Shown here one piece after another: positions 1,915 through 52,387 of a stretch of 52,387 bases of DNA; position 1 is the first letter of the stretch; the number at the start of each line of letters is the position of its first letter. The translations under genes were made by a program, and so were the position numbers. Below the pieces are notes generated by a model. It had not been told where the DNA came from, ran no database searches, and saw nothing but the letters and a program-made list of their open reading frames with translations. Source of the stretch: Dehalococcoidia bacterium (GTDB lineage Bacteria; Chloroflexota; Dehalococcoidia; Dehalococcoidales; BS750m-G39); contig DUEC01000014.1 in assembly GCA_011176635.1 (NCBI GenBank), forward strand, positions 1 through 52,387, in the 5' to 3' direction.

Positions 1915-3348
1915 ATGAATACCAGCGACAAGAGCGAGCGCTTCTTAAGCCAGGGGGACGAGCCGGAGCACAACCCTGAGGAAGCCGCCATCAGGATGTG
2001 GCTCAGGGTCTTCGTCACCATAAGGTGGATTACCATTCTGGGCATTATTTCAGCCACCCTGGTGGCGTCAAGGATATTCGACATTCAGTTCCCCATAGCC
2101 GCCGCTTTCGGAACATGTGGTTTTGTCGCCCTGTGTAACCTGGCGCTGTTATTCCAGGCTCGAAGAATAGAAAAGATGCCGGCCAGCCAGGTAGTCCGCA
2201 AGGCTAGAACTGTTGGTACCATCCACCTCTTGCTTGACCTGCTGGCATTCATCGTACTGCTTCATTTCACCGGAGGAATAGAGAACCCCTTCGTCTTCTA
2301 CTTTGTGCTCCACATCATCGGGGCTAGCATAATGCTCCACTATAGGGTAGTTTACATGTTAGCCATCTCGAAAATTGTTGCGGTTATGCTGCTGGTCGGC
2401 TTGGAATATAGTGAGGTGATACCTCACGTCAATCTAGCCGGATTTGCTCCCCCCACACTATACCAGCAAGAAAGCTATATTCTGGCTGTTCTTGTTGTTT
2501 TAGCCACCGCTCTCTTCGCCACTGCCTATATGGCCACCTCGGTCCAGGGCGAGCTAAGAAAGAGGCAGCGTGAGGTGGTGCGACTAACTCAGCGCCTGCT
2601 GAAGAAGAGGACCGGGGAGCTGAAGCAGGCTTCAAGGGAAGTAGCCAAGCTGGAAGAGGCCAGGGACCGCTTCCTCCGCTTTCTGGGGGTAACCGTTCAC
2701 GACCTGAAAGCGCCACTCACCGCCATTCAGAGTTACTTCTGGGTCATGCTGGGCGGATTTGCCGGGGAAATCACCGAAAAGCAGAGGAATATGCTGGAGA
2801 GAAGCAGCCAGAGGATTAAAGAACTGCTGACCCTGGTCAGCGACCTTTTGGATATTCCCCGCATTGATACCGGACAGATTACCCAGGAGATGAAAGACGT
2901 CTCTTTGAGCCAGCTAGTCAAGGCTTCTATAGCCGACTTGAGTGAACAGGCGAAGCAGAAGAAGGTAAAGCTAAAGGCAGAAATCCCTCAAGGTCTGCCC
3001 AAGATTCACGGCGCCGGTCCCAGGCTCCAGCAGGCGATAACCAACCTGATAGGCAACGCCATCAACTATACGCCCGAGGGGGTGGTGACCATCAGGGTAA
3101 AGGAAGGGGATAAGGCGATAGAGGTTGAAGTTATTGATACCGGCATTGGTATCCCCCCTGACGACCTGCCCCATGTCTTTGACGACTTCTTCCGCGCCAG
3201 CAATGTGGAGGTGAAGGGGACCGGTCTGGGGCTATCCATAACCAAGAGGATTGTGGAAACTCACGGGGGCAGGATAAGGGCTGAGAGCCCCTGCCCGGAG
3301 ACCAACAAGGGGAGCAGATTTAGTTTTACTCTGCCCAAGAAACGTTAA
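1915..3348 (+). CDS. Membrane sensor histidine kinase
   Basis: N-terminal half is multi-pass hydrophobic, followed by a coiled coil, the H-box VTVHDLKAPLTAI, and HATPase_c boxes (NLIGNAINYT, DTGIGI, GTGLGLS). Confidence 0.85.
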   Translation: MNTSDKSERFLSQGDEPEHNPEEAAIRMWLRVFVTIRWITILGIISATLVASRIFDIQFPIAAAFGTCGFVALCNLALLFQARRIEKMPASQVVRKARTVGTIHLLLDLLAFIVLLHFTGGIENPFVFYFVLHIIGASIMLHYRVVYMLAISKIVAVMLLVGLEYSEVIPHVNLAGFAPPTLYQQESYILAVLVVLATALFATAYMATSVQGELRKRQREVVRLTQRLLKKRTGELKQASREVAKLEEARDRFLRFLGVTVHDLKAPLTAIQSYFWVMLGGFAGEITEKQRNMLERSSQRIKELLTLVSDLLDIPRIDTGQITQEMKDVSLSQLVKASIADLSEQAKQKKVKLKAEIPQGLPKIHGAGPRLQQAITNLIGNAINYTPEGVVTIRVKEGDKAIEVEVIDTGIGIPPDDLPHVFDDFFRASNVEVKGTGLGLSITKRIVETHGGRIRAESPCPETNKGSRFSFTLPKKR

Positions 3349-38561: not shown

Positions 38562-39257
38562 GTGGACAAAATCACGGTGATGATAATCGACGAGCAAGAA
38601 TTTTTTCGGACCGGTGTACGCCAGGTACTATCGCAGCAACAGGACTTCAAAATAATAGACTGCGACCCAGCCCAGAAGCCATTGGAGCTAATTGAAGCCA
38701 ACCTCCCTGATGTCGCCCTGTTGGGCTCCGACCTGGCTACCTTCAGCGGTCTGGAACTGGGCAGAACAATCGCCCGGCTCTACCCCAATACCAAAGTGAT
38801 AATGCTGAGCCCCAATCCCAACGACGAGGAGCTCTTCGAGGTTATTAAGACCGCCGCCGTAGCCTGCTTAAATAAGAAGGCTTCCGCCGAAGAGCTGGTC
38901 AGCACTATCAGACGGGCCTCAAACGGGGAATACCCCATCAATGAAAGCCTTACCACCAGACCCACCATTGCCAAGCAGGTCTTAAAGCAATTTCAGGATA
39001 TAGCATCAATAGGAAAAGCCATGGAGGCGGTATCCGCCCCCCTCACCAAAAGGGAGGCGCAGATTCTGAACTATATCGCCGCCGGCAACTCAAATAAACA
39101 AATCGCCTACATCCTGAGTATCAGTGAGCAGACAATCAAGAACCATGTCAGTTCCATTCTACGCAAACTAAACGCCAATGATAGAGCCCATGCTGTTGCC
39201 CTGGCCATGCGCAACGGCTGGCTTTTAGGTGAGCAAAAACCAGGGGAGGCGTCCTAA
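38562..39257 (+). CDS. NarL/LuxR-family response regulator (receiver + GerE-type HTH), GTG start
   Basis: Receiver-like N-terminus, and C-terminal LTKREAQILNYIAAGNSNKQIAYILSISEQTIKNHVSSILRKL. Confidence 0.8.
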   Translation: MDKITVMIIDEQEFFRTGVRQVLSQQQDFKIIDCDPAQKPLELIEANLPDVALLGSDLATFSGLELGRTIARLYPNTKVIMLSPNPNDEELFEVIKTAAVACLNKKASAEELVSTIRRASNGEYPINESLTTRPTIAKQVLKQFQDIASIGKAMEAVSAPLTKREAQILNYIAAGNSNKQIAYILSISEQTIKNHVSSILRKLNANDRAHAVALAMRNGWLLGEQKPGEAS

Positions 39258-39268
39258 TAAGCTCTGGA

Positions 39269-41710
39269 ATGAAAGCCGAACATCGGTTTCAGGTCCGGGA
39301 TTTTAAGGATGGAGAGAATAAAGTGCCGCAATTAGGAATTAAACAAGACGCAAAGTCCCAGGTCATAGAACACCTGGAAGAACAGGGTTACAAAGTAACC
39401 GAAGGGGCTAAACTCCTGGGGAAGTCAGGGGTTGAGCATACCTTTGACATACTGGCGCAGAGGGATAACGGCTCTACCCCTCACACCATTGCTATCTGTA
39501 TTACCGCCGGAAGCGATAGCGAGACCGAGGGGGGCTCTGTCTTTAGCTTTGCCACCAGAGCCTACGACGCCAGCGTTGAGGAAAAGATTCTTATCGCCAT
39601 CCCTGAGCTTGGCCAGGAAGCCAAGGAACTGGCCAAAAAGCAACGGATAAAGGTCATCGATGAGGAAGAAATAGGTTCGTTGCTTGACTTCAAGCCCCTA
39701 TCGCCATTCAAGCTGGAGGAGCTCAGCTTTGAAAGCAAGAAGCAACTGACGGAATCCCTGGCCGAGATGGGCTACCAGATTGAGGAAAAATCCAAGGTTA
39801 GAGGCCGGTCAGGGGTTGAACATACCTTTGATATATTGGCTTATGCCGACATAGAGGGAGTTGGTCACAGCCTGGGCATAGATTTCCTGGAGGGGGAAAG
39901 GGAGATAACCCTGGAACAGTTAGCCATATTTGATACCAAAGCCTACGAGGTGGGCATTGACGACAAGGTCATCGCCACCTCACTGCCGCTAAGCCCCCAG
40001 GCCCAGCAATTTACCCAGCAACAGCGGATAAGGGTCATTAAGTCAAAGAAGGGGAAGGGAAGCGCCGCTCAAGCCACCTCGGGCAAAGAAAAGCCGGCCC
40101 TAACAGATGAGAAGCCGACCATGATGGAGGAGAAACCGGCATCAGCAGAGGAGAAGCCGACCATGATAGAGGAGAGGCCGGCCAAAGAAGAGAAGCCAGC
40201 GGCTCCAGTGGCTGGACCCGAGTTCAAACAGTTGAGGCACGCGCCTCAGCCTGAAGCACTGCAGTTAATCCCCGAGGTGATAGCCAGAAGGTACAATGCC
40301 ATGCCCCTGGCTATATCCGGTCACACATTACAGGTAGCTATGGCCGACCCCAGCGATATATTCGCCCTGGAGGCTTTCTCCGCCTTAAGCCGGATGAGGA
40401 TTAAACCTATAGCCGCCGGCGCCAACGAGGTCAGGGAGGCTATCGACTTTAACTATAAAGGCTACGGCGAGATTGAAAAACAGCTTTCCCGTATCTCTTC
40501 CCCCGATGAGACCAACGCCGAGAGACTAGCCATTACCGCCGATACCGATGCCCCCTTAGCTCAGGCCCTTAACCTTATTATTGAAGAGGCGGTCAAAGCC
40601 CGCTCATCTGATATCCACATCGAGCCGGAAGAGGACCGCTTAAGGGTGCGCTACCGCATCGACGGCACCCTCCAGGACATGATGTCCCTGCCGCTGAACA
40701 TACACCTGGCCCTCGTTTCCCGAATCAAAATCCTGGCCGATTTGAACATCGCCGACCGCCACCGCCCCCAGGACGGCCAGTTCTCCACCGAGGCTAAAGG
40801 GCGGCAAATAGATATCAGGGTGGCTACTGCCCCCACGGTCAGTGGCGAGATGGCGTCGCTGCGCCTGTTGGACAAGTCGGTGGCTACTATAGGCATACCC
40901 GAGCTTGGCATGCTACCTGATAGCCTGGAAAAGTATGAAAATATGCTAAAAGTGCCCTACGGCATGATTCTGATTAGCGGTCCTACCGGCGCTGGTAAGA
41001 CTACCACCCTTTATGCCTCAATCAACTCCCTTGACTGCCTGGGGAGAAACATCATCACCATTGAAGACCCCGCCGAGTATCGGTTTAAGGATATCAACCA
41101 GATTCAGGTCAACCCTCAAGCCGGCATCACCTTTGCCACTGGCTTGAGGAGCATACTCCGCCTTGACCCCGACGTGATAATGGTCGGTGAGATACGTGAC
41201 GGCGAAACAGCTAACATAGCGGTTCAAGCCGCCCTGACCGGCCACCTGATGCTATCTTCTGTCCATGCCAGCGATTCAGCCGGCGTGCTATCCCGTCTAC
41301 TTGACCTGGACATAGAGCCCTTCCTAATCGCCTCAGCCGTTATCGGGGTTGTGGCCCAGCGGATGGTGCGCCGCGTTTGTCCTGATTGTGGCCATCCTAT
41401 TGAGGCCCCAATGGTAGAGCAGATGGCTTACCAAAAGGAAATCGGGGAGAAGCGGGCTGAATTCGTATACGGCACCGGCTGCAAGTCATGTGCTTACACC
41501 GGTTATCTGGGGCGAACCGGAATCTTCGAGATTCTAGCCATGAGCGACACCATAAGGGCGATGATTACCAGCCAGACGAACAGTAGTGATATCCATGCCC
41601 AGGCAATTAAGGAGGGCATGGTAACCATGATGAACGATGGTATGCGTAAAGTTAAGGAAGGCATCACCACACCCTCCGAGGTGTTGCGCAATGCCTACTC
41701 TGCAGACTAG
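39269..41710 (+). CDS. pilB: PilB/GspE-family pilus assembly ATPase with an unusual N-terminal extension (two Mrr-like modules + EKP repeat)
   Basis: T2SSE_N-like region (LIPEVIARRYNAMPLA..), Walker A GPTGAGKTTT, Asp/His boxes, and a tetracysteine motif (CPDC..CKSC). An alternative start is GTG 39323. Confidence 0.85.
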   Translation: MKAEHRFQVRDFKDGENKVPQLGIKQDAKSQVIEHLEEQGYKVTEGAKLLGKSGVEHTFDILAQRDNGSTPHTIAICITAGSDSETEGGSVFSFATRAYDASVEEKILIAIPELGQEAKELAKKQRIKVIDEEEIGSLLDFKPLSPFKLEELSFESKKQLTESLAEMGYQIEEKSKVRGRSGVEHTFDILAYADIEGVGHSLGIDFLEGEREITLEQLAIFDTKAYEVGIDDKVIATSLPLSPQAQQFTQQQRIRVIKSKKGKGSAAQATSGKEKPALTDEKPTMMEEKPASAEEKPTMIEERPAKEEKPAAPVAGPEFKQLRHAPQPEALQLIPEVIARRYNAMPLAISGHTLQVAMADPSDIFALEAFSALSRMRIKPIAAGANEVREAIDFNYKGYGEIEKQLSRISSPDETNAERLAITADTDAPLAQALNLIIEEAVKARSSDIHIEPEEDRLRVRYRIDGTLQDMMSLPLNIHLALVSRIKILADLNIADRHRPQDGQFSTEAKGRQIDIRVATAPTVSGEMASLRLLDKSVATIGIPELGMLPDSLEKYENMLKVPYGMILISGPTGAGKTTTLYASINSLDCLGRNIITIEDPAEYRFKDINQIQVNPQAGITFATGLRSILRLDPDVIMVGEIRDGETANIAVQAALTGHLMLSSVHASDSAGVLSRLLDLDIEPFLIASAVIGVVAQRMVRRVCPDCGHPIEAPMVEQMAYQKEIGEKRAEFVYGTGCKSCAYTGYLGRTGIFEILAMSDTIRAMITSQTNSSDIHAQAIKEGMVTMMNDGMRKVKEGITTPSEVLRNAYSAD

Positions 41711-41731: not shown

Positions 41732-42943
41732 ATGGATTATCAATATGTAGCCTATACCGAAGATAGAACGCTGGTCAAAGGCAGGCTTTCGGCTACCAAC
41801 GAAGAAGCCGCCATAAATCTGCTCAGCTACGGCGGCTATCAAACAGTCAGCCTGAAGGAGATAACTCCCTTTTTCAATAGAGAAAAGCTGGCCGCCCGCT
41901 TTACCCGGGTAAAGTCAAGAGAAATTATAATGTTTGCCCGCCAGCTAGCTTTGCTGCTTGAATCGGGCACTGATATCGTTACCTCTCTAGAGCTACTACA
42001 GAGCCAGGTAACCAACAAAACCCTGCAGCGGGTAATTGGCGCGGTAGCCGCCGACATTCGCGGCGGTAGCTCGTTATCCAACGCCCTGAGCAAGCACCCC
42101 CGGGCTTTCCCTGAACTCTTCCACCGGACAATAGCCGCCGGCGAGCAGAGCGGCAACCTGGAGATAGTCTTAAGACAGATTGCCGATTATATGGAGAGAG
42201 GGGCCAACACCGAAAAGAGGATTAAAAGCGCCTTGACCTACCCCATTATCATTGTCGTTGTCGCCGTGTTGGTGATAAGCGTACTGGTCATCTTTGTTCT
42301 GCCCGCCTTTACCAGCCTGTACTCCAGCCTCGGCGCCGAACTACCCCTGATCACCAGGATGCTTATTGGCATATCCGACTTTCTCATCAGTTACGGGCTC
42401 TTTATTCTGCTGGCGCTGGTAGCGGCCGTTGTCGTTGGCTACCTTTATGCCAGAACGCCAGCCGGGAAATACCAGCTTGATAAACTATTACTCCGTGCCC
42501 CCGTAATCGGGCGGATTACCCAGCTCAGCGAGCTTTCCCGTTGTTGCCGGACGATGTCACTCCTGTTCAGAGTCGGCTTACCCTTACCCGACGTCATGAC
42601 TCAGGCTATCCACGGCACCAAGAATAAGATTGTGCGCCAGTCTCTGAGCGAGGTCCAGCAGGAGCTGATTAGAGGCGAAGGCTTATCCAAGCCTATGGCC
42701 AAGAGGAAGCTCTTCCTGCCCTTGATGGTGCAGATGGCCGGAGTCGGCGAGGAAACCGGTAACCTTGATAACACGCTGGCTACAGTAGCCCAGACCTACG
42801 AGGTTGAGGCTGATGACAGGACCAGCTCGGCGGTAGGGCTTATTCAGCCAGCCATAACCGTAGCCATAGGCTTAGCCGTTGCTTTCCTGGCCGTAGCCCT
42901 GGTCTCATCCATGTATTCTATCTACGGGCAGACGACTTTCTAG
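41732..42943 (+). CDS. pilC: PilC/GspF-family pilus platform membrane protein
   Basis: Two T2SSF-like repeats, three TM segments, 403 aa. Confidence 0.85.
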   Translation: MDYQYVAYTEDRTLVKGRLSATNEEAAINLLSYGGYQTVSLKEITPFFNREKLAARFTRVKSREIIMFARQLALLLESGTDIVTSLELLQSQVTNKTLQRVIGAVAADIRGGSSLSNALSKHPRAFPELFHRTIAAGEQSGNLEIVLRQIADYMERGANTEKRIKSALTYPIIIVVVAVLVISVLVIFVLPAFTSLYSSLGAELPLITRMLIGISDFLISYGLFILLALVAAVVVGYLYARTPAGKYQLDKLLLRAPVIGRITQLSELSRCCRTMSLLFRVGLPLPDVMTQAIHGTKNKIVRQSLSEVQQELIRGEGLSKPMAKRKLFLPLMVQMAGVGEETGNLDNTLATVAQTYEVEADDRTSSAVGLIQPAITVAIGLAVAFLAVALVSSMYSIYGQTTF

Positions 42944-42955
42944 AGGTAAAGATAG

Positions 42956-43414
42956 ATGAAAAACGAAAAAGGCTTTACCTTAATCGGAGTGATGATAGCC
43001 CTGGCCCTGCTGGGCGTAATTGCCGTCGCCTTCCTCGGCGCTCTGGCTACGGCATCCCACGCTATCATTGTCGCCGATGAGCATGCCACTGCCGAGAGCA
43101 TAGCCAGAAGCCAGATGGAATACGTTAAAAACCAGCCCTACATCCCCGCCACTGATTATGACCCTGACGTACCTGGAAGCGGCCAGGTAACCTATGAAAT
43201 ACTTACCGTACTTACCGACATCCCCGATGGCTATGTTATCTGCAGTATCGACCGTAACGGTTATACCGTCCCCAACGCCGTATTTGGCGTTCCCTGGGAC
43301 AGCCAGAATAACCAGCCGGCGGACACCGATTCCGGGATACAGAGAATAAGTTTGATTATCATGCACTACGATAAGGAAATAATGACATTAGAGAACTACA
43401 AGGTGAACCGATGA
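42956..43414 (+). CDS. Prepilin-type minor pilin/pseudopilin
   Basis: N-terminus MKNEKG/FTLIGVMIALALLGVIAV, a class III signal peptide. Confidence 0.75.
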   Translation: MKNEKGFTLIGVMIALALLGVIAVAFLGALATASHAIIVADEHATAESIARSQMEYVKNQPYIPATDYDPDVPGSGQVTYEILTVLTDIPDGYVICSIDRNGYTVPNAVFGVPWDSQNNQPADTDSGIQRISLIIMHYDKEIMTLENYKVNR

Positions 43415-43941
43415 AACTAGCTAAACTTGGCTTAAATCAGAACCAGAGGGGTTTTGCTCTGCTGACTATGATGATAGCTCTGGCCATATCAGGCATTATC
43501 GTGACGGCGGCTACCATGACCACCTTCCAGGTGATGAACGGGAGTAACCGCACCTCCAATCACATGGTCGCCATCAGACAGGTGCAGAATGCCGGTTACT
43601 GGATAAGCTATGACGTCCAGATGTCTCAAACCGTGGAACCAGCCGCCGCACCGGACCAGGACGGGCTTCCCCTGACCCTGACCTGGAACGAGTACGCCAG
43701 CGGCATCGAGCACCAGATTGTCTACGAGCTGGTAGGCGACGAGCTCAGGCGCAGCTACTCCATCAACGGCGGGGCGCCGACGGAGTCCACCGTGGCTGAA
43801 TTCATTGTCTCCGGCACCAATTGTGAATATAGCGGCGGTGTGCTCACCTTCACCGTAGTCGCCACTGTGGGCGCCGGCTCACAGGAAATAACCGAGACCG
43901 GGATATATGAGATTATTCCCCGGCCAAGCGGGCAGAGCTAA
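43411..43941 (+). CDS. Prepilin-type minor pilin/pseudopilin
   Basis: NQRG/FALLTMMIALAISGIIV. ATGA overlap with the previous gene. Confidence 0.7.
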   Translation: MKLAKLGLNQNQRGFALLTMMIALAISGIIVTAATMTTFQVMNGSNRTSNHMVAIRQVQNAGYWISYDVQMSQTVEPAAAPDQDGLPLTLTWNEYASGIEHQIVYELVGDELRRSYSINGGAPTESTVAEFIVSGTNCEYSGGVLTFTVVATVGAGSQEITETGIYEIIPRPSGQS

Positions 43942-43963
43942 TAATTGAGCAGAGGGGAGGCTG

Positions 43964-45085
43964 ATGAAGATGAAAAGAATAATAAAGAAGATAATAAGGG
44001 GAGAGAAGGGTCAAGCGCTGATGATAACCTTGATTCTGCTCCTTCTGGGCAGTCTAATCACCGTTCCTCTTCTGGGTTTTGTGGGCACCGGGGTGGAAAC
44101 GGGTGCCGTCTATGAGGAGGACATGCTTGAGCTTTATGCCGCCGATTCCGGTATAGAGGATGCCATACAGCAGATAATAATCGGCGCCGAGGGCTTGCCC
44201 AGCGAGACCGACCCGATATGGTCATACCAGATAGCCGACGTGAACGGCAAAGAGGTATACGTTACCATAACCTATCTAGATAACGCCGCTTATAAAATCA
44301 CCTCCACAGCCGGCAACACTCAAATTACTGTCTTCATTGCCCCGTTGTACGGTGACTATGGCGGCATACTTGATAACGTCATCACCAGTCAGGGCGATTA
44401 TACATTGCAAGGTCCGACTACTGTTGAGCCCCCAGAGGGAGAAGAGCACGGACCTGTAGACAACTATGAAGGAGACTGGCCTACGCCTGAGCAACTTATC
44501 TTATTTTACTCTGAGGATGTAGAAGGTGTAGACCCCTACCCTAGCGGTACTCTGGATGTGGCCGACTATGCTGCTACTGGAATTGGGCCGCTTTATAGAG
44601 ATGGCACACTATCAATTGTAAACAGTGGGTCTGCGGGGCTAACAGTTTCACTTAATGACACTCTCTATATTACCGGCAACACCCAGATTGGGGCGACAGG
44701 ACATGATTTCACCCTCAACCTCAACGGGCAGACAATATTCGTCGAGAGTGACGAGACAGGCGGATATGCTCTTCAAATCGGGGGTAAATGCAACCTCACC
44801 GGTTCGGGAGTCATTATTGCCATTGGTAGTATTCAATTTAAACCTAATATGAGCTCCGGTCCCTCCGATTACATTCTTGTCATGTCGGTAATAGGTACGA
44901 CTTATATGCAGCCCAATGGCGATTTTTACGGCACTTTAGCCGGCTCCTCTGAAGTCTATATACAAAATGGTAGTGTCCACTGGTCACAGCCAGGCGAAGG
45001 TGGAATAAACTTCCCCGGCGAGGGTGGCAGCGGCAGCGAAGGTACTCAATACCTGATTCACTCTTGGGAGATTGGCCAACCATAG
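43964..45085 (+). CDS. PilX_N-like pilus-associated protein, paralog 1
   Basis: N-terminus MKMKRIIKKIIRGEKGQALMITLILLLLG and LYAADSGIEDAI (PilX_N-like). The second ATG (43970) is better spaced from the SD. Confidence 0.6.
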   Translation: MKMKRIIKKIIRGEKGQALMITLILLLLGSLITVPLLGFVGTGVETGAVYEEDMLELYAADSGIEDAIQQIIIGAEGLPSETDPIWSYQIADVNGKEVYVTITYLDNAAYKITSTAGNTQITVFIAPLYGDYGGILDNVITSQGDYTLQGPTTVEPPEGEEHGPVDNYEGDWPTPEQLILFYSEDVEGVDPYPSGTLDVADYAATGIGPLYRDGTLSIVNSGSAGLTVSLNDTLYITGNTQIGATGHDFTLNLNGQTIFVESDETGGYALQIGGKCNLTGSGVIIAIGSIQFKPNMSSGPSDYILVMSVIGTTYMQPNGDFYGTLAGSSEVYIQNGSVHWSQPGEGGINFPGEGGSGSEGTQYLIHSWEIGQP

Positions 45086-45106
45086 AAAGGCCGAGGGGAG
45101 GAGGCG

Positions 45107-46288
45107 ATGAAGATGAAAAGAATAGCCAAGAAGATAATAAGGGGGGAGAAGGGGCAATCACTGATTGCGGTCCTGATTCTGCTCCTCCTGGGCGGTCTGG
45201 TCACCGCTCCGGTTCTGAGTTTGGTGACCACCGGTGTGGATACGAATGCCGTCTATGAGGATGACATGAACGAGCTTTACGCCGCCGATGGCGGCATTGA
45301 GGACGCCATAAGGAATATAATAGCCGGCGCCGAGGGCTTGCCTAGCGAGAGTGACCCAATAGTGTCATACCAAATAGATGTGAATGACAAAAATGTAGAC
45401 GTTACCATAACCTACATAGATGACACCACCTATAGAATCACCTCCACCGCCACCACCGATGAAGAATCCAGCACCACCATTGAATCTTACCTTACCTCAA
45501 GCGGCGGTTCTGGCATCTTTGACAATGCCATTACCGCCCTCAACGGCGATATAACCCTTGGCGGCAACGCCCGGGTTATCTCATCGCCAACCAGCGGCGA
45601 GGGCGATATCTTCGCCAACGGTGACATTAACCTGAGTGGTAACGCCAGAGTAGAAGGCGACGGTACCGCCACCGGAGAAATCGATTTAAGCGGTAACTCC
45701 CAAATCGAGGGTGATGAGACCGAAGGCGCGACACCGGTAACTCCGCCCGATATAGACAGCGCCCCATACCTGCAGGAGGCGGAGATGGGCGGCGTCCATG
45801 AAGGTAACCTGAGCCTCAGTGGTAACGGCACTTACGACTTAGGGCCGCTGCATATTACCGGAAACCTTTCCATTTCCGGCAACCGCACGGTAACACTGGA
45901 AGGAACGGTTTATGTTGATGGCACCATCAGTATGAGCGGTAACACCCGCATCGAGGGCGGGTTTACCATTGTGGCCGATGGCAATATTGGTCTAACGGGA
46001 AATAGTAAACTCGACCTTGAGGACATCCCCTTCGTCTTTTCCACCAACGGCAACATTTCAACTACCGGCAATAACTGGACATCAGCCATAGTATACGCCC
46101 CTAACGGTCACGTCAACTTGACAGGAAACAGTAGGATATACGGGACTGTGCTCGGGCTTAGCGTTACCGGCTCGGGCAACAACAAGATTGAGTACCCCAT
46201 AGGGCTGAGCGACAGCGAGAGCCTGCCCGGCACCGGAGATGGCACCTACCAGATTCGCACCTGGGATATCAGTCACCAGCAGGAGTAG
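45107..46288 (+). CDS. PilX_N-like pilus-associated protein, paralog 2, with beta-helix-like (L/I)x(S/T)GN repeats
   Basis: Its N-terminal ~110 aa align to paralog 1. About ten copies of LSGN/LTGN/ISGN occur at ~20-aa spacing. Confidence 0.6.
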   Translation: MKMKRIAKKIIRGEKGQSLIAVLILLLLGGLVTAPVLSLVTTGVDTNAVYEDDMNELYAADGGIEDAIRNIIAGAEGLPSESDPIVSYQIDVNDKNVDVTITYIDDTTYRITSTATTDEESSTTIESYLTSSGGSGIFDNAITALNGDITLGGNARVISSPTSGEGDIFANGDINLSGNARVEGDGTATGEIDLSGNSQIEGDETEGATPVTPPDIDSAPYLQEAEMGGVHEGNLSLSGNGTYDLGPLHITGNLSISGNRTVTLEGTVYVDGTISMSGNTRIEGGFTIVADGNIGLTGNSKLDLEDIPFVFSTNGNISTTGNNWTSAIVYAPNGHVNLTGNSRIYGTVLGLSVTGSGNNKIEYPIGLSDSESLPGTGDGTYQIRTWDISHQQE

Positions 46289-46291
46289 TCG

Positions 46292-46921
46292 ATGAGGTTA
46301 AGGTTAAGTAGAACAGCTTGGTTAATTCTAGGGGGTGGTATTTTCGTTATCGTCCTGGGTATCCTTCTCTTAGGCTACGGCCGCCTCTCCGGTGAGCACG
46401 CCAATGTGGAGGGTGACCTGTCTGCAGCTCAGAATCTCCTGCCCACTGTTGTCTCTGAGAGGGAGTATTGGGAAAACCAACTGGCCCAGTTGGAAGACCA
46501 ACTGGCTGAAGGCACGTCATCGCTCAACGCCAGCAAGGCGAGATTCCCCCGAAGCGTGGATAGCATTGAATACGATGAGGAGTTATTTATCATTGCTCAC
46601 GCCCACGACCTGGAAATAGCCAGCATCACCGCCTCAGAGCCTTACCAGGAAGATATACTGGGTATTATCTACACTACCACCATTTTTGAGGTAGAGGTAA
46701 TGGCAGGGGAGCACTCCTATGTAACCTGGACCCAGGGGCACATCGACCAGGTCGTTGACAATATAGTCGGCTTCCTCAACGCTTTAGTCACCAGCGATTA
46801 CTTCGATACGGCTTCCATAGACCTGGTAAGTATAATTGCCCCGGCTGATGAAGAAGGGGAGGAAGTAACAGAGCCTTCAGCCATCATCACCCTGGTTATC
46901 TACAGTTACCAAGAGGAATAA
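46292..46921 (+). CDS. PilO-like bitopic pilus alignment protein
   Basis: N-terminal TM (AWLILGGGIFVIVLGILLLG), a coiled coil, position between the minor pilins and pilM/N. Confidence 0.5.
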   Translation: MRLRLSRTAWLILGGGIFVIVLGILLLGYGRLSGEHANVEGDLSAAQNLLPTVVSEREYWENQLAQLEDQLAEGTSSLNASKARFPRSVDSIEYDEELFIIAHAHDLEIASITASEPYQEDILGIIYTTTIFEVEVMAGEHSYVTWTQGHIDQVVDNIVGFLNALVTSDYFDTASIDLVSIIAPADEEGEEVTEPSAIITLVIYSYQEE

Positions 46922-46923
46922 TC

Positions 46924-48393
46924 ATGGCCAAGAAAGTTGTTACCTTATTTATTAGAGATGATTCCGTTAACCTGCTGATAATGGCGGGTAAACGAGTGGA
47001 AAAGTGGGCCAGCCTGCCGCTGGAGCCGGGGCTGGTCAGCCAAGGGCTCGTCGTTGAGGAAGCCCAGGTAGCTAACAAGCTTAAGGAGCTATTTAAGCTG
47101 GAAAAGATAGCCGCGGGGAGGATTATTGCCGGCTTAAGCGGCCATAACTCCGTATACCGCATAATAAACCTGCCCGAGTTGCCCGAAGCGGTACTGCCTG
47201 AGGCGGTCAAGCGTGAGGCCAAAAGGGTGATACCAGTGCCTCTGGAGGAGGTCTACCTTTCCTACCAGCCTCTTCCCCCCACCGAGGGAGAAACACGCCT
47301 TTTCCTGGCCGCTTTCCCGCGCAATGCGGCTGACGCCCTGCACCGGACGCTACACCAGGCCGGGCTTCAGCCCTACATCATGGATTTAGCTCCCCTGGCC
47401 CTGTGCCGAGCGGTGAATGAACCCAGGTCCATAATCGTAAACACCAAGTCAGACAACACCGACATTATAGTGATGACGGAGAGAATACCCCAGGTAATCC
47501 ACAGGCTATCCCTACCTGGTGAGGCTGAATCGTCAGCGGAAAGGTTATCAGCCATAGCCGAAGAGATTGACCGGACGATTACCTTCTACAATTCCAGCCA
47601 CCAGGATGCGCCCTTAGATTCAACGGTGCCCATGCTGGTCTGCGGCGACCTGGCCGGGGAACCGGAGAGTTGGGAATCGCTGGCTGGCAAGTCGGGGTGC
47701 ACCGTCTCAGTACTGCCCTCGCCCGTGGAAACCCCCGATGGCTTTAACCCCAACGGGTTTATGGTCAACATAGGGCTGGCCCTTAAGGAGCTGCTGGCCG
47801 AAAGAGGAGAGTCTAACTTTTCCCTGGTCAACCTCAACACCATGCCCGAGGTTTACCGGCCCAAGCCCGTCCGCTTACCGAACATCTTTGCCCCCGTTGC
47901 CCTAGCCGTCGGTATCAGCATACTCCTCGGCGTGGGATTCCTCGTCTTCAACACGGCTTCTCACACCGGCGTATTGCGCTCCGAACTGGAGTCCCTGGAG
48001 AGCCTTATCGCCCAGGAGACGGCGACAACAGGCTTACTGCAGAGCCAGGTTACGCTCATAGAGCCGCAGATTACGGAGGTAGAGGCTACCAGAGATATCT
48101 TTGACGGCACCTTCAACACCCTGGCCGATATTCGCATAGAGGTTAACGCCGATGTGAGCCAGATTGTAACCTCCTGCCCCACGGAGATAGGCCTGACCGG
48201 GGTTGACCACGTGATTAATAGCGCCACCGTAGGCGGCGTGTCCCCGACCGAGCACAGCATCTTCGTATACGCCAGAAGTCTAAGAGCCAGCGGACGGTTT
48301 TCCACGGTGACTATCTCCTCCATAGAAGCTATAGAGGAAGAGGGGGAGGTCACCGGCTTTGAATTTGAGATTCTCCTGGGACCCAAGGAATAA
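46924..48393 (+). CDS. pilM: PilM (actin-like ATPase fold) fused to a PilN-like TM + periplasmic domain
   Basis: PilM-like N-terminal ~310 aa, TM IFAPVALAVGISILLGVGFLVF, then a coiled coil and a PilN-like C-terminus. Confidence 0.7.
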   Translation: MAKKVVTLFIRDDSVNLLIMAGKRVEKWASLPLEPGLVSQGLVVEEAQVANKLKELFKLEKIAAGRIIAGLSGHNSVYRIINLPELPEAVLPEAVKREAKRVIPVPLEEVYLSYQPLPPTEGETRLFLAAFPRNAADALHRTLHQAGLQPYIMDLAPLALCRAVNEPRSIIVNTKSDNTDIIVMTERIPQVIHRLSLPGEAESSAERLSAIAEEIDRTITFYNSSHQDAPLDSTVPMLVCGDLAGEPESWESLAGKSGCTVSVLPSPVETPDGFNPNGFMVNIGLALKELLAERGESNFSLVNLNTMPEVYRPKPVRLPNIFAPVALAVGISILLGVGFLVFNTASHTGVLRSELESLESLIAQETATTGLLQSQVTLIEPQITEVEATRDIFDGTFNTLADIRIEVNADVSQIVTSCPTEIGLTGVDHVINSATVGGVSPTEHSIFVYARSLRASGRFSTVTISSIEAIEEEGEVTGFEFEILLGPKE

Positions 48394-48398
48394 GAGAA

Positions 48399-49469
48399 GT
48401 GGATATTTTGGCTTTACTTCATACAGCCAAGTCAAAGGCGGCCTCGGACGTGCACCTGGTTGTCTCCAGTCCGCCGCTGCTGCGCATTGACGGCTCGCTA
48501 ACGCCGGTGGACAGCACCGCGCCGCTCAGTGAGGACGATATAAGCCAGGCTTTCAACCAGATAACCACCGCCGAGCAAAGGGAGGACTTCAACAAGAACC
48601 TGGAGCTCGATTTTAGCTACGTCCTGCCCGATATCGGTCACGTGCGCTGCAACGCCGCTCAACAGCGCGGGGCTATCAGCCTTGCCCTGCGCCTTTTGCC
48701 CCCGGAAGTCCCCACCATAGATGAGATGGAGCTGCCGGCGATATGCAAGGAGCTGGCCATGAAGCCGAGGGGGCTGGTAATAGTTACCGGACCTACCGGC
48801 AGCGGTAAGAGCACCACCCTGGCGGCTATGATTAACCACCTGAATACCAATGAAAGCCGCCATATAGTCACTATTGAAGACCCCATAGAATACGTATACA
48901 CCAGTAAAAAGTGCGCAATAACCCAGCGCCAGTTAGGCAGCGATACCGTATCCTTTGCCGCCGCCTTAAAGCACGTCCTGAGGCAGGACCCCGATGTGAT
49001 TCTGGTGGGAGAGATGAGGGACCTGGATACGGCAGCGGCGGCGCTTACCATAGCCGAGACCGGCCACCTGGTATTAACCACCGGTCATGCCCCCAGCGCC
49101 ACTCAAGCCATGGAGAGAGTAATAGACCTGTTCCCCCCCGATGAGCGTCACCTGGCCCAGACGCGGTTAGCTTCTCTGCTGATTGCTGTGCTATGTCAGG
49201 TGCTCGTCCCCCGGGCTAACGGCTCGGGCAGGACAGTCGCCGTTGAGATTATGCTGGCTAATCCACCGGTGAGAAACCTCATCCGTGAGGGCAAAATCTA
49301 CCAGCTGCCCAATGTAATCCGCACTCACCGGGAAATAGGCATGATCTCACTGGATGAAGCCCTGGTCAACCTCTATCTTAAAAAGACCATCACCGGTGAA
49401 GTCCTGCTCGCTACCTGCAACGACCGCCAGGAAGTAGAAAAGCTCATCGGCAAGGTCGAGGTCAAATAA
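48399..49469 (+). CDS. pilT: PilT-type retraction ATPase (GTG start)
   Basis: DILALLHTAKSKAASDVHL, Walker A GPTGSGKSTT, AALKHVLRQDPDVILVGEMRD, GHLVLTTGH. Confidence 0.9.
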   Translation: MDILALLHTAKSKAASDVHLVVSSPPLLRIDGSLTPVDSTAPLSEDDISQAFNQITTAEQREDFNKNLELDFSYVLPDIGHVRCNAAQQRGAISLALRLLPPEVPTIDEMELPAICKELAMKPRGLVIVTGPTGSGKSTTLAAMINHLNTNESRHIVTIEDPIEYVYTSKKCAITQRQLGSDTVSFAAALKHVLRQDPDVILVGEMRDLDTAAAALTIAETGHLVLTTGHAPSATQAMERVIDLFPPDERHLAQTRLASLLIAVLCQVLVPRANGSGRTVAVEIMLANPPVRNLIREGKIYQLPNVIRTHREIGMISLDEALVNLYLKKTITGEVLLATCNDRQEVEKLIGKVEVK

Positions 49470-49694: not shown

Positions 49695-50057
49695 TTACTC
49701 AGCTACTGCTGGACAAGGTGAAGACTGCGTTACGGTGCAGTTAGGATAAGTGCCACCAAAGGTGTAGCCGCCCATTAACTCGCTCATGGGGCTCTCAAAG
49801 TAAACAGCCAGCTGAGTTAAATAGTCAGCAGTAGTGGGGCAGGCTTGATTCTCGGCAACATAGGCCATGGTAGCAGTTGCCATCATTCGGTCTTCAATGT
49901 CACACGCCTCATCTTGGCCCTGACCGAAGAAACGGCCAAAGTTAGGCACCACTATTGCCGCCAGGATACCGAGGATAGCAATCACCACCAGCAACTCAAT
50001 CAGGGTGAACCCCTTCTCGCCATAGCGAAAGCTCTTGAATAACCGCTTTAGTCTCAT
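49695..50057 (-). CDS. pilA: Type IV major pilin (prepilin with 16-aa leader)
   Basis: MRLKRLFKSFRYGEKG/FTLIELLVVIAILGILAAIV is a canonical G/FTLIE site. Four Cys in the C-terminal half. Strong SD GGGAGGTG. Confidence 0.85.
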   Translation of the reverse strand: MRLKRLFKSFRYGEKGFTLIELLVVIAILGILAAIVVPNFGRFFGQGQDEACDIEDRMMATATMAYVAENQACPTTADYLTQLAVYFESPMSELMGGYTFGGTYPNCTVTQSSPCPAVAE

Positions 50058-50120: not shown

Positions 50121-50149
50121 ATGATATAATCTGCCCCTTTTAGGGTCAA
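50121..50149 (-). promoter_or_regulatory. Candidate pilin promoter (TTGACC-17-TATCAT)
   Basis: On the minus strand, -35 is at 50144-50149 and -10 at 50121-50126. It is overlapped and flanked by the repeat motif below. Confidence 0.4.
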
Positions 50150-50250
50150 TAGTCCGTTAGTAACGGTTAGCGGCGATAACGTATAGTCATATGGGGCTAA
50201 TAATGGGAGGCTTTTGCTGTCAGTAGTCCGATAGTAATGGTTGGAGGGCG
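50146..50250. repeat. Two ~30-bp imperfect direct repeats 74 bp apart (TCARTAGTCCGWTAGTAAYGGTT..)
   Basis: 50146-50175 versus 50220-50250 match at 21 of the first 25 positions. The core CCGATAGTAA recurs at 51720-51729. Confidence 0.5.
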
Positions 50251-50298: not shown

Positions 50299-51672
50299 TT
50301 ATAATTCCTTGGCTTCAAAGACCTTGATTCTCTGCCTCTGGGCGAACTGGTTGGCTTCCTTGGCCAGGCCGGGAACGGCGATGAAGACCTTGTCCATGAT
50401 GCCTATATCATAGGCCTTATTATCAAAAGCGAATACCTTGTCCAGTCCCACCGCTCCCCTGGCCGCCTCGGTGCCGATGGCGATATCATGGACAACAATG
50501 CCGTCATCCCTGGTAGCCAGTATATCTATTTCATGAGTCGCCCCGGAGCGGCCGCTAACCTTAGCCTTCTCCTTCACCTCGTAGCCGCACCGCTTCAAGT
50601 ATTCTATGAGCTGGGCTTTGGACTTAACGGCAAAGGGCTCTTTGGGCGCTTCCACGGCGGGCTTGGCGGCACTGCTGGCCAGCACTGTCTCCAGGCTCTT
50701 AATCTCGAGCACCTTTATCCTCTGCTGGCTGGCAAACTTCTCGGCTTCCTTGGTCAACCCGGGGAGGACGACCAGGACTTTATCATGAATGCCGATATCA
50801 TAGACCTTATCATCAAAGTCACACACCTCCCCCAGCTCTATCGCCTCGCCGGCTACCTTAATGCCGATGGCAATATCATGGACAACGATGCCGTCGTCCT
50901 TGGTAGCCATTATATCTATGCTGTGCTCCGCCCCGGAACGGCCCTTGACGACGGCGTCTTCCTTTACTTCGTAGCCGAGCCGCTTCAGAGATTGTATGAG
51001 CTGTGCTTTGGGCTTGGCCTCAAACTCCAGCCAGCCCCTCTTTGCCTCGTTAAAACTATAAGAATAGATAATTACCTCTTCAATTCTATCCTGGGGGGTG
51101 AGGGCATCGCACTTCAGGCAGCGCCATTGTATCTCCGGCTGGCTGAATATCTCGGAGCAATCGTAGCACTTGCACATCAAGCCCAGGCTCTGGTAGTCAC
51201 CGCCGCCGATGCGCAGTTCCACACCGCACCGTGGGCAGATATAGCCCTCACCGGAAACAAACTCGTCCTCCAGCCCGCCGAACTTGCAGGAGAGGTGCTC
51301 AAAGACGCGGCCCCGGGCAAAGTTCCCCGAGCCGCATTGGGGACAACAGCTGTAGGGTCTTATATTCACCGAGCGGCACTGGGGGCAGCGGAGCAGTCTA
51401 TCAAAGAAGTTTCTTACCAGCGTGTCCTTAGAAACTAAGGATTCCAGAATCGATAATACTTCCCTGCCCTTGACCTTTAAGGCTTGCTCCACCACCGGGT
51501 AGCTGAAGCCCAGCTCGCTGGTGAAATCAAGCTCCGGTCTAATGTCAACAATCCTCCCCGCCAGCAGCTCGGCCACCAGTTTCTTCACCCCTTCATTCCC
51601 TACCCCGCTGGCGGCTGGTGGGATTTCGGCTGCCCTGGGATTATCGCCTGTCGGCTGGCTCACTTCTGCCAT
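50299..51672 (-). CDS. Multi-zinc-ribbon protein carrying two copies of the same ~105-aa Mrr-like module found in PilB
   Basis: CxxC pairs at residues 96/99, 110/113, 146/149, 169/172 and 185/188. Modules at residues ~221-328 and ~350-457 (KGRSGAEHSIDIMA.. / SGRSGATHEIDILA..). Confidence 0.7.
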   Translation of the reverse strand: MAEVSQPTGDNPRAAEIPPAASGVGNEGVKKLVAELLAGRIVDIRPELDFTSELGFSYPVVEQALKVKGREVLSILESLVSKDTLVRNFFDRLLRCPQCRSVNIRPYSCCPQCGSGNFARGRVFEHLSCKFGGLEDEFVSGEGYICPRCGVELRIGGGDYQSLGLMCKCYDCSEIFSQPEIQWRCLKCDALTPQDRIEEVIIYSYSFNEAKRGWLEFEAKPKAQLIQSLKRLGYEVKEDAVVKGRSGAEHSIDIMATKDDGIVVHDIAIGIKVAGEAIELGEVCDFDDKVYDIGIHDKVLVVLPGLTKEAEKFASQQRIKVLEIKSLETVLASSAAKPAVEAPKEPFAVKSKAQLIEYLKRCGYEVKEKAKVSGRSGATHEIDILATRDDGIVVHDIAIGTEAARGAVGLDKVFAFDNKAYDIGIMDKVFIAVPGLAKEANQFAQRQRIKVFEAKEL

Positions 51673-51707: not shown

Positions 51708-51736
51708 AGTATAGTTTGACCGATAGTAAAAGTCAA
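51708..51736 (-). promoter_or_regulatory. Promoter of the zinc-ribbon/module gene (TTGACT-17-TATACT)
   Basis: On the minus strand, -35 is at 51731-51736 and -10 at 51708-51713. The spacer contains TTACTATCGG, the reverse complement of the CCGATAGTAA motif. Confidence 0.5.
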
Positions 51737-51801: not shown

Positions 51802-52387
51802 ATGGAAGCCGCTCTTATAGTTATCTTCATCCTCGTCGGGATGACCATAGCCAGCTTCCTCAATGTCTGCATCGACCGCCTGCCCGCCAACGAGTCGCTG
51901 ATTTTCCCCGCCTCTCACTGCGCCTCCTGCCAGCGCCGCCTGACGGTAAAAGACCTGATTCCCGTTTTCAGCTACCTGTGGCTGCGCGGCCGCTGCCGCT
52001 ACTGCCAGGCCCAAATCCCCAGGCGCATACTCTGGGTGGAGCTCGGCACCGGCCTCCTTTTCGGCTACCTCTACTGGCACTACGGCTTGAGCGCCGAGCT
52101 GACTATCGCCGCCTTCTACAGCTGTCTTTTCATCGTGCTTATGGTCATCGACCTGGAGCGGGGGCTTATCCTGAATAAGATAGTCTACCCGGCTATGGGG
52201 GTGGCTCTGCTCCTCAGCACCTTCTTCAGCATCTTCCTGCCCGATATAGAGATTGTCCCCTTCATCGGCAGGGCGGCTATCGGCGGCGGCATGGGGCTGG
52301 TGGTTTTCTTTCTCATAGTCATTATCTCCCGGGGGGGGATGGGCTGGGGAGACGTTAAGCTGGCGGCGCTAATCGGCCTGGTCACCG
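51802..52387 (+). CDS. pilD: Prepilin peptidase (A24 family, PilD), 3' end outside window; not in the supplied ORF track
   Basis: My manual translation from ATG 51802 gives MEAALIVIFILVGMTIASFLNVCIDRLP..HCASCQRRL..IPVFSYLWLRGRCRYCQAQI..LMVIDLERG..GMGWGDVKLAA. The frame stays open to the window end. Confidence 0.85.
   Translation, partial: MEAALIVIFILVGMTIASFLNVCIDRLPANESLIFPASHCASCQRRLTVKDLIPVFSYLWLRGRCRYCQAQIPRRILWVELGTGLLFGYLYWHYGLSAELTIAAFYSCLFIVLMVIDLERGLILNKIVYPAMGVALLLSTFFSIFLPDIEIVPFIGRAAIGGGMGLVVFFLIVIISRGGMGWGDVKLAALIGLVT

Follow-up and report, generated by a model that had tools for sequence, protein, structure and literature searches.

A gene near one end of a 52,387-nucleotide stretch of DNA from a Dehalococcoidia bacterium (contig DUEC01000014.1 of assembly GCA_011176635.1; the whole stretch is called the window below) encodes a 457-aa protein that joins a TackOD1 zinc domain to two copies of a module with a restriction-endonuclease (iREase) fold. 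The gene occupies positions 50299..51672 on the minus strand and was defined by its open reading frame (ORF), by Pfam matches and by an AlphaFold2 model. Its position in related genomes identifies this TackOD1 gene as a predicted fixed part of the type IV pilus cluster in Dehalococcoidia, encoding a dedicated accessory component of the type IVa machinery. As to how the protein works, the reading that we favor, with a probability of about 0.45, is that it is a signaling adaptor acting on the pilus assembly ATPase PilB at the protein level, through modules that appear to be dead nucleases.

The TackOD1 gene in type IV pilus loci of Dehalococcoidia

In the window, the TackOD1 gene sits between the pilin gene directly downstream of it (49695..50057, minus strand; N_methyl motif) and the divergent gene pilD for the prepilin peptidase, which starts at 51802 on the plus strand and runs past the window end (51802..52387; A24_N_bact, E=1.7e-33, and Peptidase_A24). 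An earlier note on this DNA, made from the sequence alone, had placed the gene next to a pilin gene and divergent from pilD, and the Pfam matches of both neighbors bear this out. The note had also tied the gene to pilus loci and suggested a check of its distribution, which we carried out by scanning one genome per GTDB species with an alignment of the close family, a query that sampled Dehalococcoidia only. The scan yielded 80 loci with 42-94% identity, whose records are labeled Dehalococcoidia, Dehalococcoidales, Chloroflexota or Chloroflexia, except for one metagenome-assembled genome binned as Brocadiaceae. When searched by tblastn with the pilus proteins of the window, 72 of the 80 loci had pilus genes alongside, in agreement with the note; among the eight that did not, six end at a contig edge beside the gene. 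The arrangement of the window recurs as well, with pilD placed in the same way in 35 related loci and a pilin gene downstream of the TackOD1 gene in 45.

Further genes recur on the far side of pilD. Two related loci carry a small winged-helix gene of the HTH_45 family beside pilD (L001 8611-8880, L002 8332-8601); the window ends inside pilD, beyond which such a gene would lie. A few genes past pilD, the same two loci encode a conserved protein with seven transmembrane segments followed by GAF, GGDEF and HD-GYP domains (L001 2848-5382, L002 2459-4963). Together with the MshEN domain of PilB, this GGDEF-HD-GYP neighbor hints at an input from cyclic di-GMP (c-di-GMP) to the same pilus system.

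The same tandem of modules on PilB

The earlier note had claimed that PilB shares a module with the TackOD1 protein, and PilB in fact carries two copies. According to Pfam and a hidden Markov model (HMM) of the module, the 813-aa PilB of the window (39269..41710, plus strand) begins with two dead-nuclease modules, followed by a low-complexity linker rich in Pro, Glu and Lys and then by the MshEN and T2SSE domains. Module 1 of PilB comprises residues 27-134 (39347..39670, plus strand; Mrr_cat at 29.5 bits and alignment) and module 2 residues 152-260 (39722..40048, plus strand; alignment and HMM match). PilB module 2 is 37% identical to module 1 of the TackOD1 protein.

Across the related loci, the TackOD1 gene and pilB are arranged in different ways. 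Type A, found in 18 loci and, by a separate look-up, in L091, has the gene 20-36 nt ahead of pilB on the same strand; the PilB is 518-535 aa long and consists of MshEN and T2SSE without modules, and PilC and the rest of the locus come after it. In type B (5 loci), other genes, amounting to 0.6-3.4 kb, separate the TackOD1 gene from a downstream gene for a PilB of 787-826 aa that bears the N-terminal tandem. In type C, to which the window and its closer relatives belong, the gene has pilD on one side and the pilin gene on the other, and PilB is again long (813 aa in the window, 807 aa in L001 and 802 aa in L002); the N-terminal tandem on a long PilB is also present in L039. The window protein is 34-52% identical to those of lineages in which the gene is tightly coupled to pilB. 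The tandem thus occurs either beside PilB alone or both beside and on PilB, a pattern of fission and fusion that argues for a functional link of the module pair with PilB, probably a physical one.

In a rough neighbor-joining tree, PilB module 2 clusters with module 2 of the TackOD1 protein, and three of four copies of PilB module 1 cluster with module 1 of the TackOD1 protein, while module 1 of the window's PilB stands apart. Since the PilB modules thus mostly group with their counterparts, the tree fits an origin in which PilB took up a copy of the whole tandem.

In one type B locus (L074 3124-5458), four tandem paralogues of 141 aa (MPDxxMxDxLSEMA...) are encoded between the TackOD1 gene and the gene for the long PilB. 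A Pfam scan of the four gave no match, and a guess that they are Roadblock/LC7 proteins, which thus had no Pfam support, was dropped.

A duplicated module with a nuclease fold

Within the TackOD1 protein, module 1 spans residues 216-330 (50683..51027, minus strand), contains the motif GRSGAEHSID and was assigned from Mrr_cat, from matches to restriction-endonuclease folds and from conservation. Module 2 spans residues 346-457 (50302..50637, minus strand) and was assigned from Mrr_cat and from its 64% identity to module 1. Residues ~216-327 and ~346-457 align without a gap at 64-65% identity (local score 352), and the internal duplication that the earlier note had seen in the DNA is real: the two stretches that it quoted agree at 56 of 70 positions with the 390-nt period. 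At an offset of 390 nt the DNA identity is 63%, compared with 29% at 387 and 393, and a repeat search returned a direct repeat of 300 nt with 73% identity at the 390-nt spacing. The identity between modules 1 and 2 is 51-69% in the majority of type C loci, the window having 64%, and its median is 43.5% in type A. Furthermore, the modules of the window are nearer to each other (64%) than either is to its type A orthologue (44-49%). These values suggest concerted evolution by gene conversion between the modules in the window's clade, and this conversion would be the reason why the repeat is still visible in the DNA.

The fold of the modules was assigned in several ways. The Mrr_cat family (PF04471) matched the whole protein in two stretches (E=5e-13, 49.6 bits with a cut-off of 21), and each module alone exceeded the same cut-off, at 29.6-31.3 bits (31.3 for module 1). 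In a Foldseek comparison with the PDB, only the modules of the protein were matched, and all matches were restriction-endonuclease folds; the best was AF1548 (1y88; E=6e-7), and others included EndoMS, Can2/Cdn1, MspJI, AspBHI, Bax1 and FokI. When the sequence of the whole protein was compared with the PDB, no match was significant, and a PDB search with a profile of the module returned AF1548 as its sole match, a weak one.

The aspartate at the 'PD' position of such nucleases is retained, as D253 in module 1 and D383 in module 2. The position of the (D/E)xK motif, with its register set by HMM coordinates and predicted strands and not by structural superposition, reads G270-I-K272 in module 1, G400-T-E402 in module 2, and C-I-T and D-F-L in the modules of the window's PilB; it is unconserved both in 120 close homologues and in distant ones. 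What is conserved instead is the pattern GxSGxxHxxD: even distant homologues show little or no variation at its residues G244, S246, G247, H250 and D253, and the PilB of the window has them in its modules as well. In PilB modules from other loci, the pattern has decayed, with D changed to A and H to Y. Because the (D/E)xK catalytic motif is absent, we predict that the repeated modules are of the Mrr-type restriction-endonuclease fold and nuclease-dead. Homologues carry database names such as 'restriction endonuclease' and 'Holliday junction resolvase', which, given the loss of the catalytic (D/E)xK, are probably wrong as functions. The isoelectric points (pI) of the protein and its domains are 5.1-6.5, acidic to neutral, with the exception of module 2, which is basic.

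The TackOD1 domain and its zinc ribbons

The note had tentatively compared the cysteine pattern with that of the archaeal TackOD1-type output domain. The comparison was correct, as Pfam TackOD1 (PF18551) matched with E=1.6e-35 (122.9 bits with a cut-off of 32), and the match covers residues 30-206 on positions 11-187 of the 188-position profile. The five CxxC pairs of the note are all at the positions it listed, beginning at C96, C110, C146, C169 and C185, and an additional H126xxC129 brings the number of potential ligands to 12. This pattern of five CXXC and one HXXC, with eleven Cys, agrees with the definition of TackOD1 by Galperin et al. 2018 (PMC5847659). The ligands are invariant or nearly so in three alignments, and their conservation extends over 55-103 homologues. 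Twelve ligands would suffice for three zinc sites of four ligands each, presumably occupied by zinc; from their order in the sequence, the likely groups are C96/C99/C110/C113, H126/C129/C146/C149 and C169/C172/C185/C188. The resulting zinc-ribbon array, assigned from the Cys/His positions and their conservation, comprises residues 96-207 (51052..51387, minus strand).

An N-terminal winged helix of about 95 aa, which the note had thought possible, can be upheld only in part. Residues 1-24 (51601..51672, minus strand) form a poorly conserved tail that is predicted to be disordered, with a predicted local distance difference test score (pLDDT) <50. Residues 25-95 (51388..51600, minus strand) lie within the Pfam TackOD1 model and form a winged-helix-like subdomain in the predicted secondary structure: in AlphaFold2 models, helices at 25-38, 59-65 and 70-81 are followed by a strand region at 85-95. 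This order of helices and strands makes the winged-helix reading plausible for residues 25-95, although the subdomain, with a pI of 6.5, had no Pfam helix-turn-helix match and no match to a solved structure in the PDB. The model of the whole protein, built with 103 sequences, had a pLDDT of 90.4 and a predicted template modeling score (pTM) of 0.71, and the TackOD1 domain modeled alone had a pLDDT of 94.6. When the TackOD1 domain alone was compared with the PDB by Foldseek, there was no significant match (best E=0.06); the similarities below significance were local ones to zinc ribbons and rubredoxin and a weak one to TFIIE-alpha.

Homologues outside Dehalococcoidia

An exhaustive search through 1.84 billion cluster representatives returned 2312 proteins at E<=1e-3. 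Mapping custom HMMs onto the best 150 of these 2312 revealed four architectures. The commonest is TackOD1 followed by one module, ~320-330 aa in length and 25-33% identical to the query; named members of this form come from Nitrososphaerales, Freyarchaeota, Kariarchaeaceae, Methanofastidiosa and candidate division WOR-3. The others are TackOD1 with two modules, as in the window; PilB with the module pair, MshEN and T2SSE; and a response-regulator form of 500-983 aa, in which a REC domain and a linker precede TackOD1 and one to three modules. The N-terminal REC domain is present in P0122-P0125, P0133, P0134, P0144, P0154, P0155, P0162 and P0203; the protein of the window is stand-alone. A search with the thaumarchaeal member P0161 retrieved only 3 proteins, and a profile search with a diverse alignment recovered the two-module family again and added nothing.

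Genomic contexts of distant members were drawn from cluster look-ups and 12 contig look-ups, which gave nine independent contexts outside Dehalococcoidia. In seven of the nine, the gene is beside or within a few genes of a processive glycosyltransferase of family 2 (GT2): L003/L004 (Nitrososphaerales), L005/L006 (Freyarchaeota, with overlapping reading frames), L007, the REC-fused P0133, L089 (Methanofastidiosa), L092 and L093. One of the remaining contexts is an archaeal pilus locus (L090), and the other, from WOR-3 (L088), has neither pilus genes nor a GT2. The PgaC/IcaA-like GT2 genes that adjoin TackOD1 genes in archaea are located at L003 10986-12422, L005 680-2095, L007 11621-13183, L092 9545-10951, L089 9770-11683 and L093 4985-7114. 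The enzymes of L003, L005 and L007 contain the QxxRW motif and are 37-40% identical to one another, and PgaC/IcaA was the best-scoring NCBIfam model for the five glycosyltransferases compared, at scores under its cut-off. A PgaC-like glycosyltransferase was not found among ten of the larger window ORFs upstream of the pilus locus.

An occurrence of homologues independent of pilus genes, which the note had named as the finding that would speak against it, is therefore not seen in Dehalococcoidia, with pilus genes in 72 of 80 loci, but is seen elsewhere, where seven of nine contexts lie beside a GT2 synthase. Because the distant homologues are mostly found beside a PgaC-like glycosyltransferase, the role of the family appears to be broader than pili, and we take its theme to be surface filaments and exopolysaccharide, not pili alone.

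Several small genes were seen in the archaeal loci. The TackOD1 gene of the archaeal pilus locus (L090 9008-10065) is followed by two genes for small Arf/Ras-like GTPases and one for a KaiC-like ATPase. V4R-domain genes lie beside the TackOD1 genes of two glycosyltransferase-linked loci (L089 8941-9768, L093 3713-4231), and an HTH_45 gene occurs near TackOD1 genes in archaea too (L003 12873-13190, L093 2210-2656).

Promoters and a palindromic motif

The near-consensus promoter that the earlier note had assigned to the TackOD1 gene was recovered by our scan as a promoter-like site, TTGACT-17-TATACT (51708..51736, minus strand), which has 10/12 matches and precedes the ATG by 36 nt; neither hexamer varies among five related loci. 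Its spacer contains a copy of the TTACTATCGG motif (51720-51732, minus strand), identified by motif search. A second promoter-like site, TTGACC-17-TATCAT, precedes the pilin gene and has the palindrome CCGTTACTAACGG 4 nt upstream of its -35 element (50121..50166, minus strand, for palindrome and promoter; scan and conservation in six loci). This proximal copy is a 6-1-6 palindrome of 13 nt. A distal copy, CCATTACTATCGG, is located at 50228..50240 (minus strand); the two pilin-side copies belong to a 48-nt direct repeat at a spacing of 74 nt (50126-50247). The motif CCGNTAGTAA is present in three copies in the 52 kb, all of them in the two intergenic regions that flank the gene; 0.31 copies were expected by chance, and 0 of 100 shuffles reached 3.

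The proximal palindrome, the pilin promoter and the distal copy 74 nt away are conserved in six loci. The strict palindrome pattern was absent from the related loci, and the conservation emerged by alignment and with a relaxed pattern. Of 57 matches to the relaxed motif, 18 fell within 400 nt downstream of the gene, a region that makes up ~3% of the sequence searched. The copy in the promoter of the TackOD1 gene itself is kept in the closest relatives only.

Possible functions of the TackOD1 protein

If the TackOD1 protein acts on PilB, we envision the following. The protein would be cytoplasmic and stand-alone, and would couple to PilB with its tandem modules, presumably by physical contact. 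In loci with a long PilB, the tandem of the protein would pair, module to module, with the tandem at the PilB N-terminus. Input or partner binding would fall to the TackOD1 zinc domain, since REC domains are wired to TackOD1 in relatives. Docking may then tether or gate the PilB hexamer and thereby control pilus extension, by presumed activation or inhibition. The fission and fusion of the modules with PilB, the tight coupling of the gene with pilB and the REC-fused relatives fit this arrangement, and we also count in its favor the acidic modules (pI ~5), which are atypical for DNA binders, although module 2 is basic. The earlier note had called the protein a candidate sensor or regulator of pilus assembly; the pilus context fits this and REC-fused relatives exist, while the role itself is something that we infer.

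Several observations weigh against an action on PilB. Two loci of the scan, L033 and L058, have ample flanking sequence and yet no pilus genes nearby. The dead-nuclease module is absent from the glycosyltransferases of L003, L005 and L007, and because these neighbors lack it, pairing of module to module is not a general mechanism of the family. Furthermore, winged-helix-like subdomains, zinc ribbons and nuclease folds are all frequent in DNA-binding proteins, receiver domains mostly have DNA-binding outputs, and conserved palindrome copies that flank a gene are the classic layout for a transcription factor.

The last points lead to a DNA-binding transcription factor, in which the subdomain, the zinc ribbons and/or the modules would bind the palindromes, activate the pilin promoter and autoregulate the gene, and in relatives would act on the adjacent glycosyltransferase operon. 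The confinement of CCGNTAGTAA to the flanking intergenic regions (three copies vs 0.31 expected), the conserved palindrome 4 nt upstream of the pilin -35 in six loci, the enrichment of the relaxed motif downstream of the gene and the REC-fused relatives all speak for it, as does the position of the gene, which is always directly upstream of a presumed target, be it the pilin gene, the PilB operon or a glycosyltransferase. However, the protein is acidic to neutral, and so are its domains apart from the basic module 2 (pI 5.1-6.5), the TackOD1 domain matches no solved DNA-binding fold, and PilB, to which the same two modules are fused, is no transcription factor. The motif in the gene's own promoter is restricted to the closest relatives, and the motif could belong either to the REC-LuxR regulator in the locus or to the recurrent small HTH_45 gene. 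We regard a transcription factor as the main rival, though a rather unlikely one, which the conserved palindrome upstream of the pilin promoter keeps in play. We consider it improbable that the protein is a small-molecule or metal/redox sensor, in which the GxSGxxHxxD pocket or the zinc array would bind a ligand, and PilB and the protein would sense independently, without contact. The five near-invariant residues of the pocket persist despite the loss of the catalytic motif, in the PilB modules of the window as well, 11 Cys and 1 His are strictly conserved, and c-di-GMP-related parts are present in the loci (MshEN in PilB, the GGDEF/HD-GYP protein nearby in L001 and L002). Nevertheless, no ligand-binding family matched the window protein, the pocket has decayed in PilB modules elsewhere (D to A, H to Y), and a simple oxygen or redox sensor sits poorly with a family that occurs in strict anaerobes and aerobic ammonia oxidizers alike. 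Finally, the database names, an Mrr_cat score above the cut-off and the retained PD aspartates (D253, D383) would be expected of an active restriction-type endonuclease, one that lies near pilus genes by coincidence or serves DNA uptake. We rejected this as highly improbable, since neither the two modules nor the PilB copies have a (D/E)xK motif or conserve its position; in addition, no methyltransferase or defense context was seen in any locus inspected, and pilus synteny holds in 72 of 80 loci.

Thus, an adaptor that acts on PilB is the reading that we retain for the window protein. Its extension to the whole family, in which TackOD1 with the dead-nuclease module would be a widespread signaling output that gates, at the protein level, cytoplasmic engines for the export of cell-surface polymers, both PilB and PgaC-like synthases, in archaea and some bacteria, we consider rather unlikely. 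If true, the family would be a counterpart of c-di-GMP receptor modules in lineages that mostly do not have them, and the PilB fusions of Dehalococcoidia would be the 'Rosetta stone' for the physical partner.

Other features of the pilus locus and the window

A response regulator with REC and LuxR/GerE domains (38562..39257, plus strand; Pfam) is encoded just upstream of pilB. The remaining pilus operon (41732..49469, plus strand) encodes PilC, two minor pilins, two large pilin-like proteins, a 209-aa protein, a PilM-N fusion and PilT, as assigned by the Pfam families T2SSF, N_methyl, PilM_2 and T2SSE and by DUF7305. The two large pilin-like proteins are adjacent paralogues of 373 aa (43964-45085) and 393 aa (45107-46288), the second of which contains DUF7305. 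Their N-termini are nearly identical, MKMKRIxKKIIRGEKGQ followed by a hydrophobic helix, and they may be tip or adhesin pilins.

At 1915-3348, 35 kb from the pilus locus, the window encodes a histidine kinase with a weak PilS-like domain of six transmembrane segments. Other genes of the window belong to anaerobic metabolism and include those for aldehyde:ferredoxin oxidoreductases, glutamate mutase and a radical SAM protein.

Relation to known systems

The TackOD1 family and its link to archaeal pili are already published, and Pfam already flags both domains on such proteins. In the literature that we searched, there was no report of the near-constant dead-nuclease partner, of the two-module variant of Dehalococcoidia, of the PilB fusion or of the link to a PgaC-like synthase, and nothing relevant on fusions of PilB with nucleases or on regulators of Dehalococcoidia pili. 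Hardly anything is known about how Chloroflexota control their type IV pili, or how Thaumarchaeota and Asgard archaea control pili and exopolysaccharide, and since 2018 TackOD1 has counted as an 'obscure' output domain. The fission and fusion with PilB offer a concrete hypothesis that can be tested in vitro, namely that the module pair binds PilB, and the recurrent pairing with a PgaC-like synthase suggests one regulator family for attachment and biofilm across domains of life. The analysis also corrects a common label, as proteins named 'restriction endonuclease' do not have the catalytic motif.

The closest known system is TackOD1/arCOG06883 of Thaumarchaeota. In the parts consulted of Galperin et al. 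2018 (PMC5847659), who defined the domain, and of Makarova et al. 2016 (PMC4858521), who tied the double-zinc-ribbon proteins of arCOG06883 to thaumarchaeal pilus loci, these proteins are stand-alone or REC-fused, are encoded inside type IV pilus loci and have no known function. Those parts describe a double-zinc-ribbon or 'output' domain and mention no nuclease-fold module, PilB fusion or glycosyltransferase link. The window protein has the same domain, with a full-length HMM match, five CXXC and one HXXC, and a pilus locus around it. In contrast to the thaumarchaeal proteins, it is bacterial and has two C-terminal dead-nuclease modules instead of one, and its locus is a bacterial type IVa locus (PilB/PilC/PilM-N/PilT/PilD) in which PilB has the same modules.

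The modules, in turn, share their fold with Mrr_cat (PF04471), NA-iREase1 (PF22722) and AF1548 (PDB 1y88), as judged by HMM and Foldseek. They differ from Mrr_cat and NA-iREase1 in having GxSGxxHxxD and no (D/E)xK, and their context is that of pili or polysaccharide, not of restriction or NACHT conflict systems.

Two groups of regulators act on comparable machines. ArnA/ArnB-type regulators of the archaellum, which are characterized by zinc-ribbon, FHA and vWA domains, are cytoplasmic and act on a type IV filament machine downstream of signaling. The window protein resembles them as a predicted cytoplasmic zinc-ribbon protein tied to such a machine, but it has neither FHA nor vWA and no homology to them was detected. 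MshEN, PilZ c-di-GMP receptors and the FimX-PilZ-PilB system exemplify cytoplasmic modules that gate pilus ATPases and processive GT2 synthases, either as separate proteins or fused to them. PilZ, MshEN and FimX-type domains had no Pfam or NCBIfam match in the 457-aa protein, MshEN being found in PilB, and there is no sequence or fold relationship between these regulators and the TackOD1 protein. The resemblance is instead one of possible mechanism, not of family, as the two share the same types of target and the same pattern of fusion and fission.

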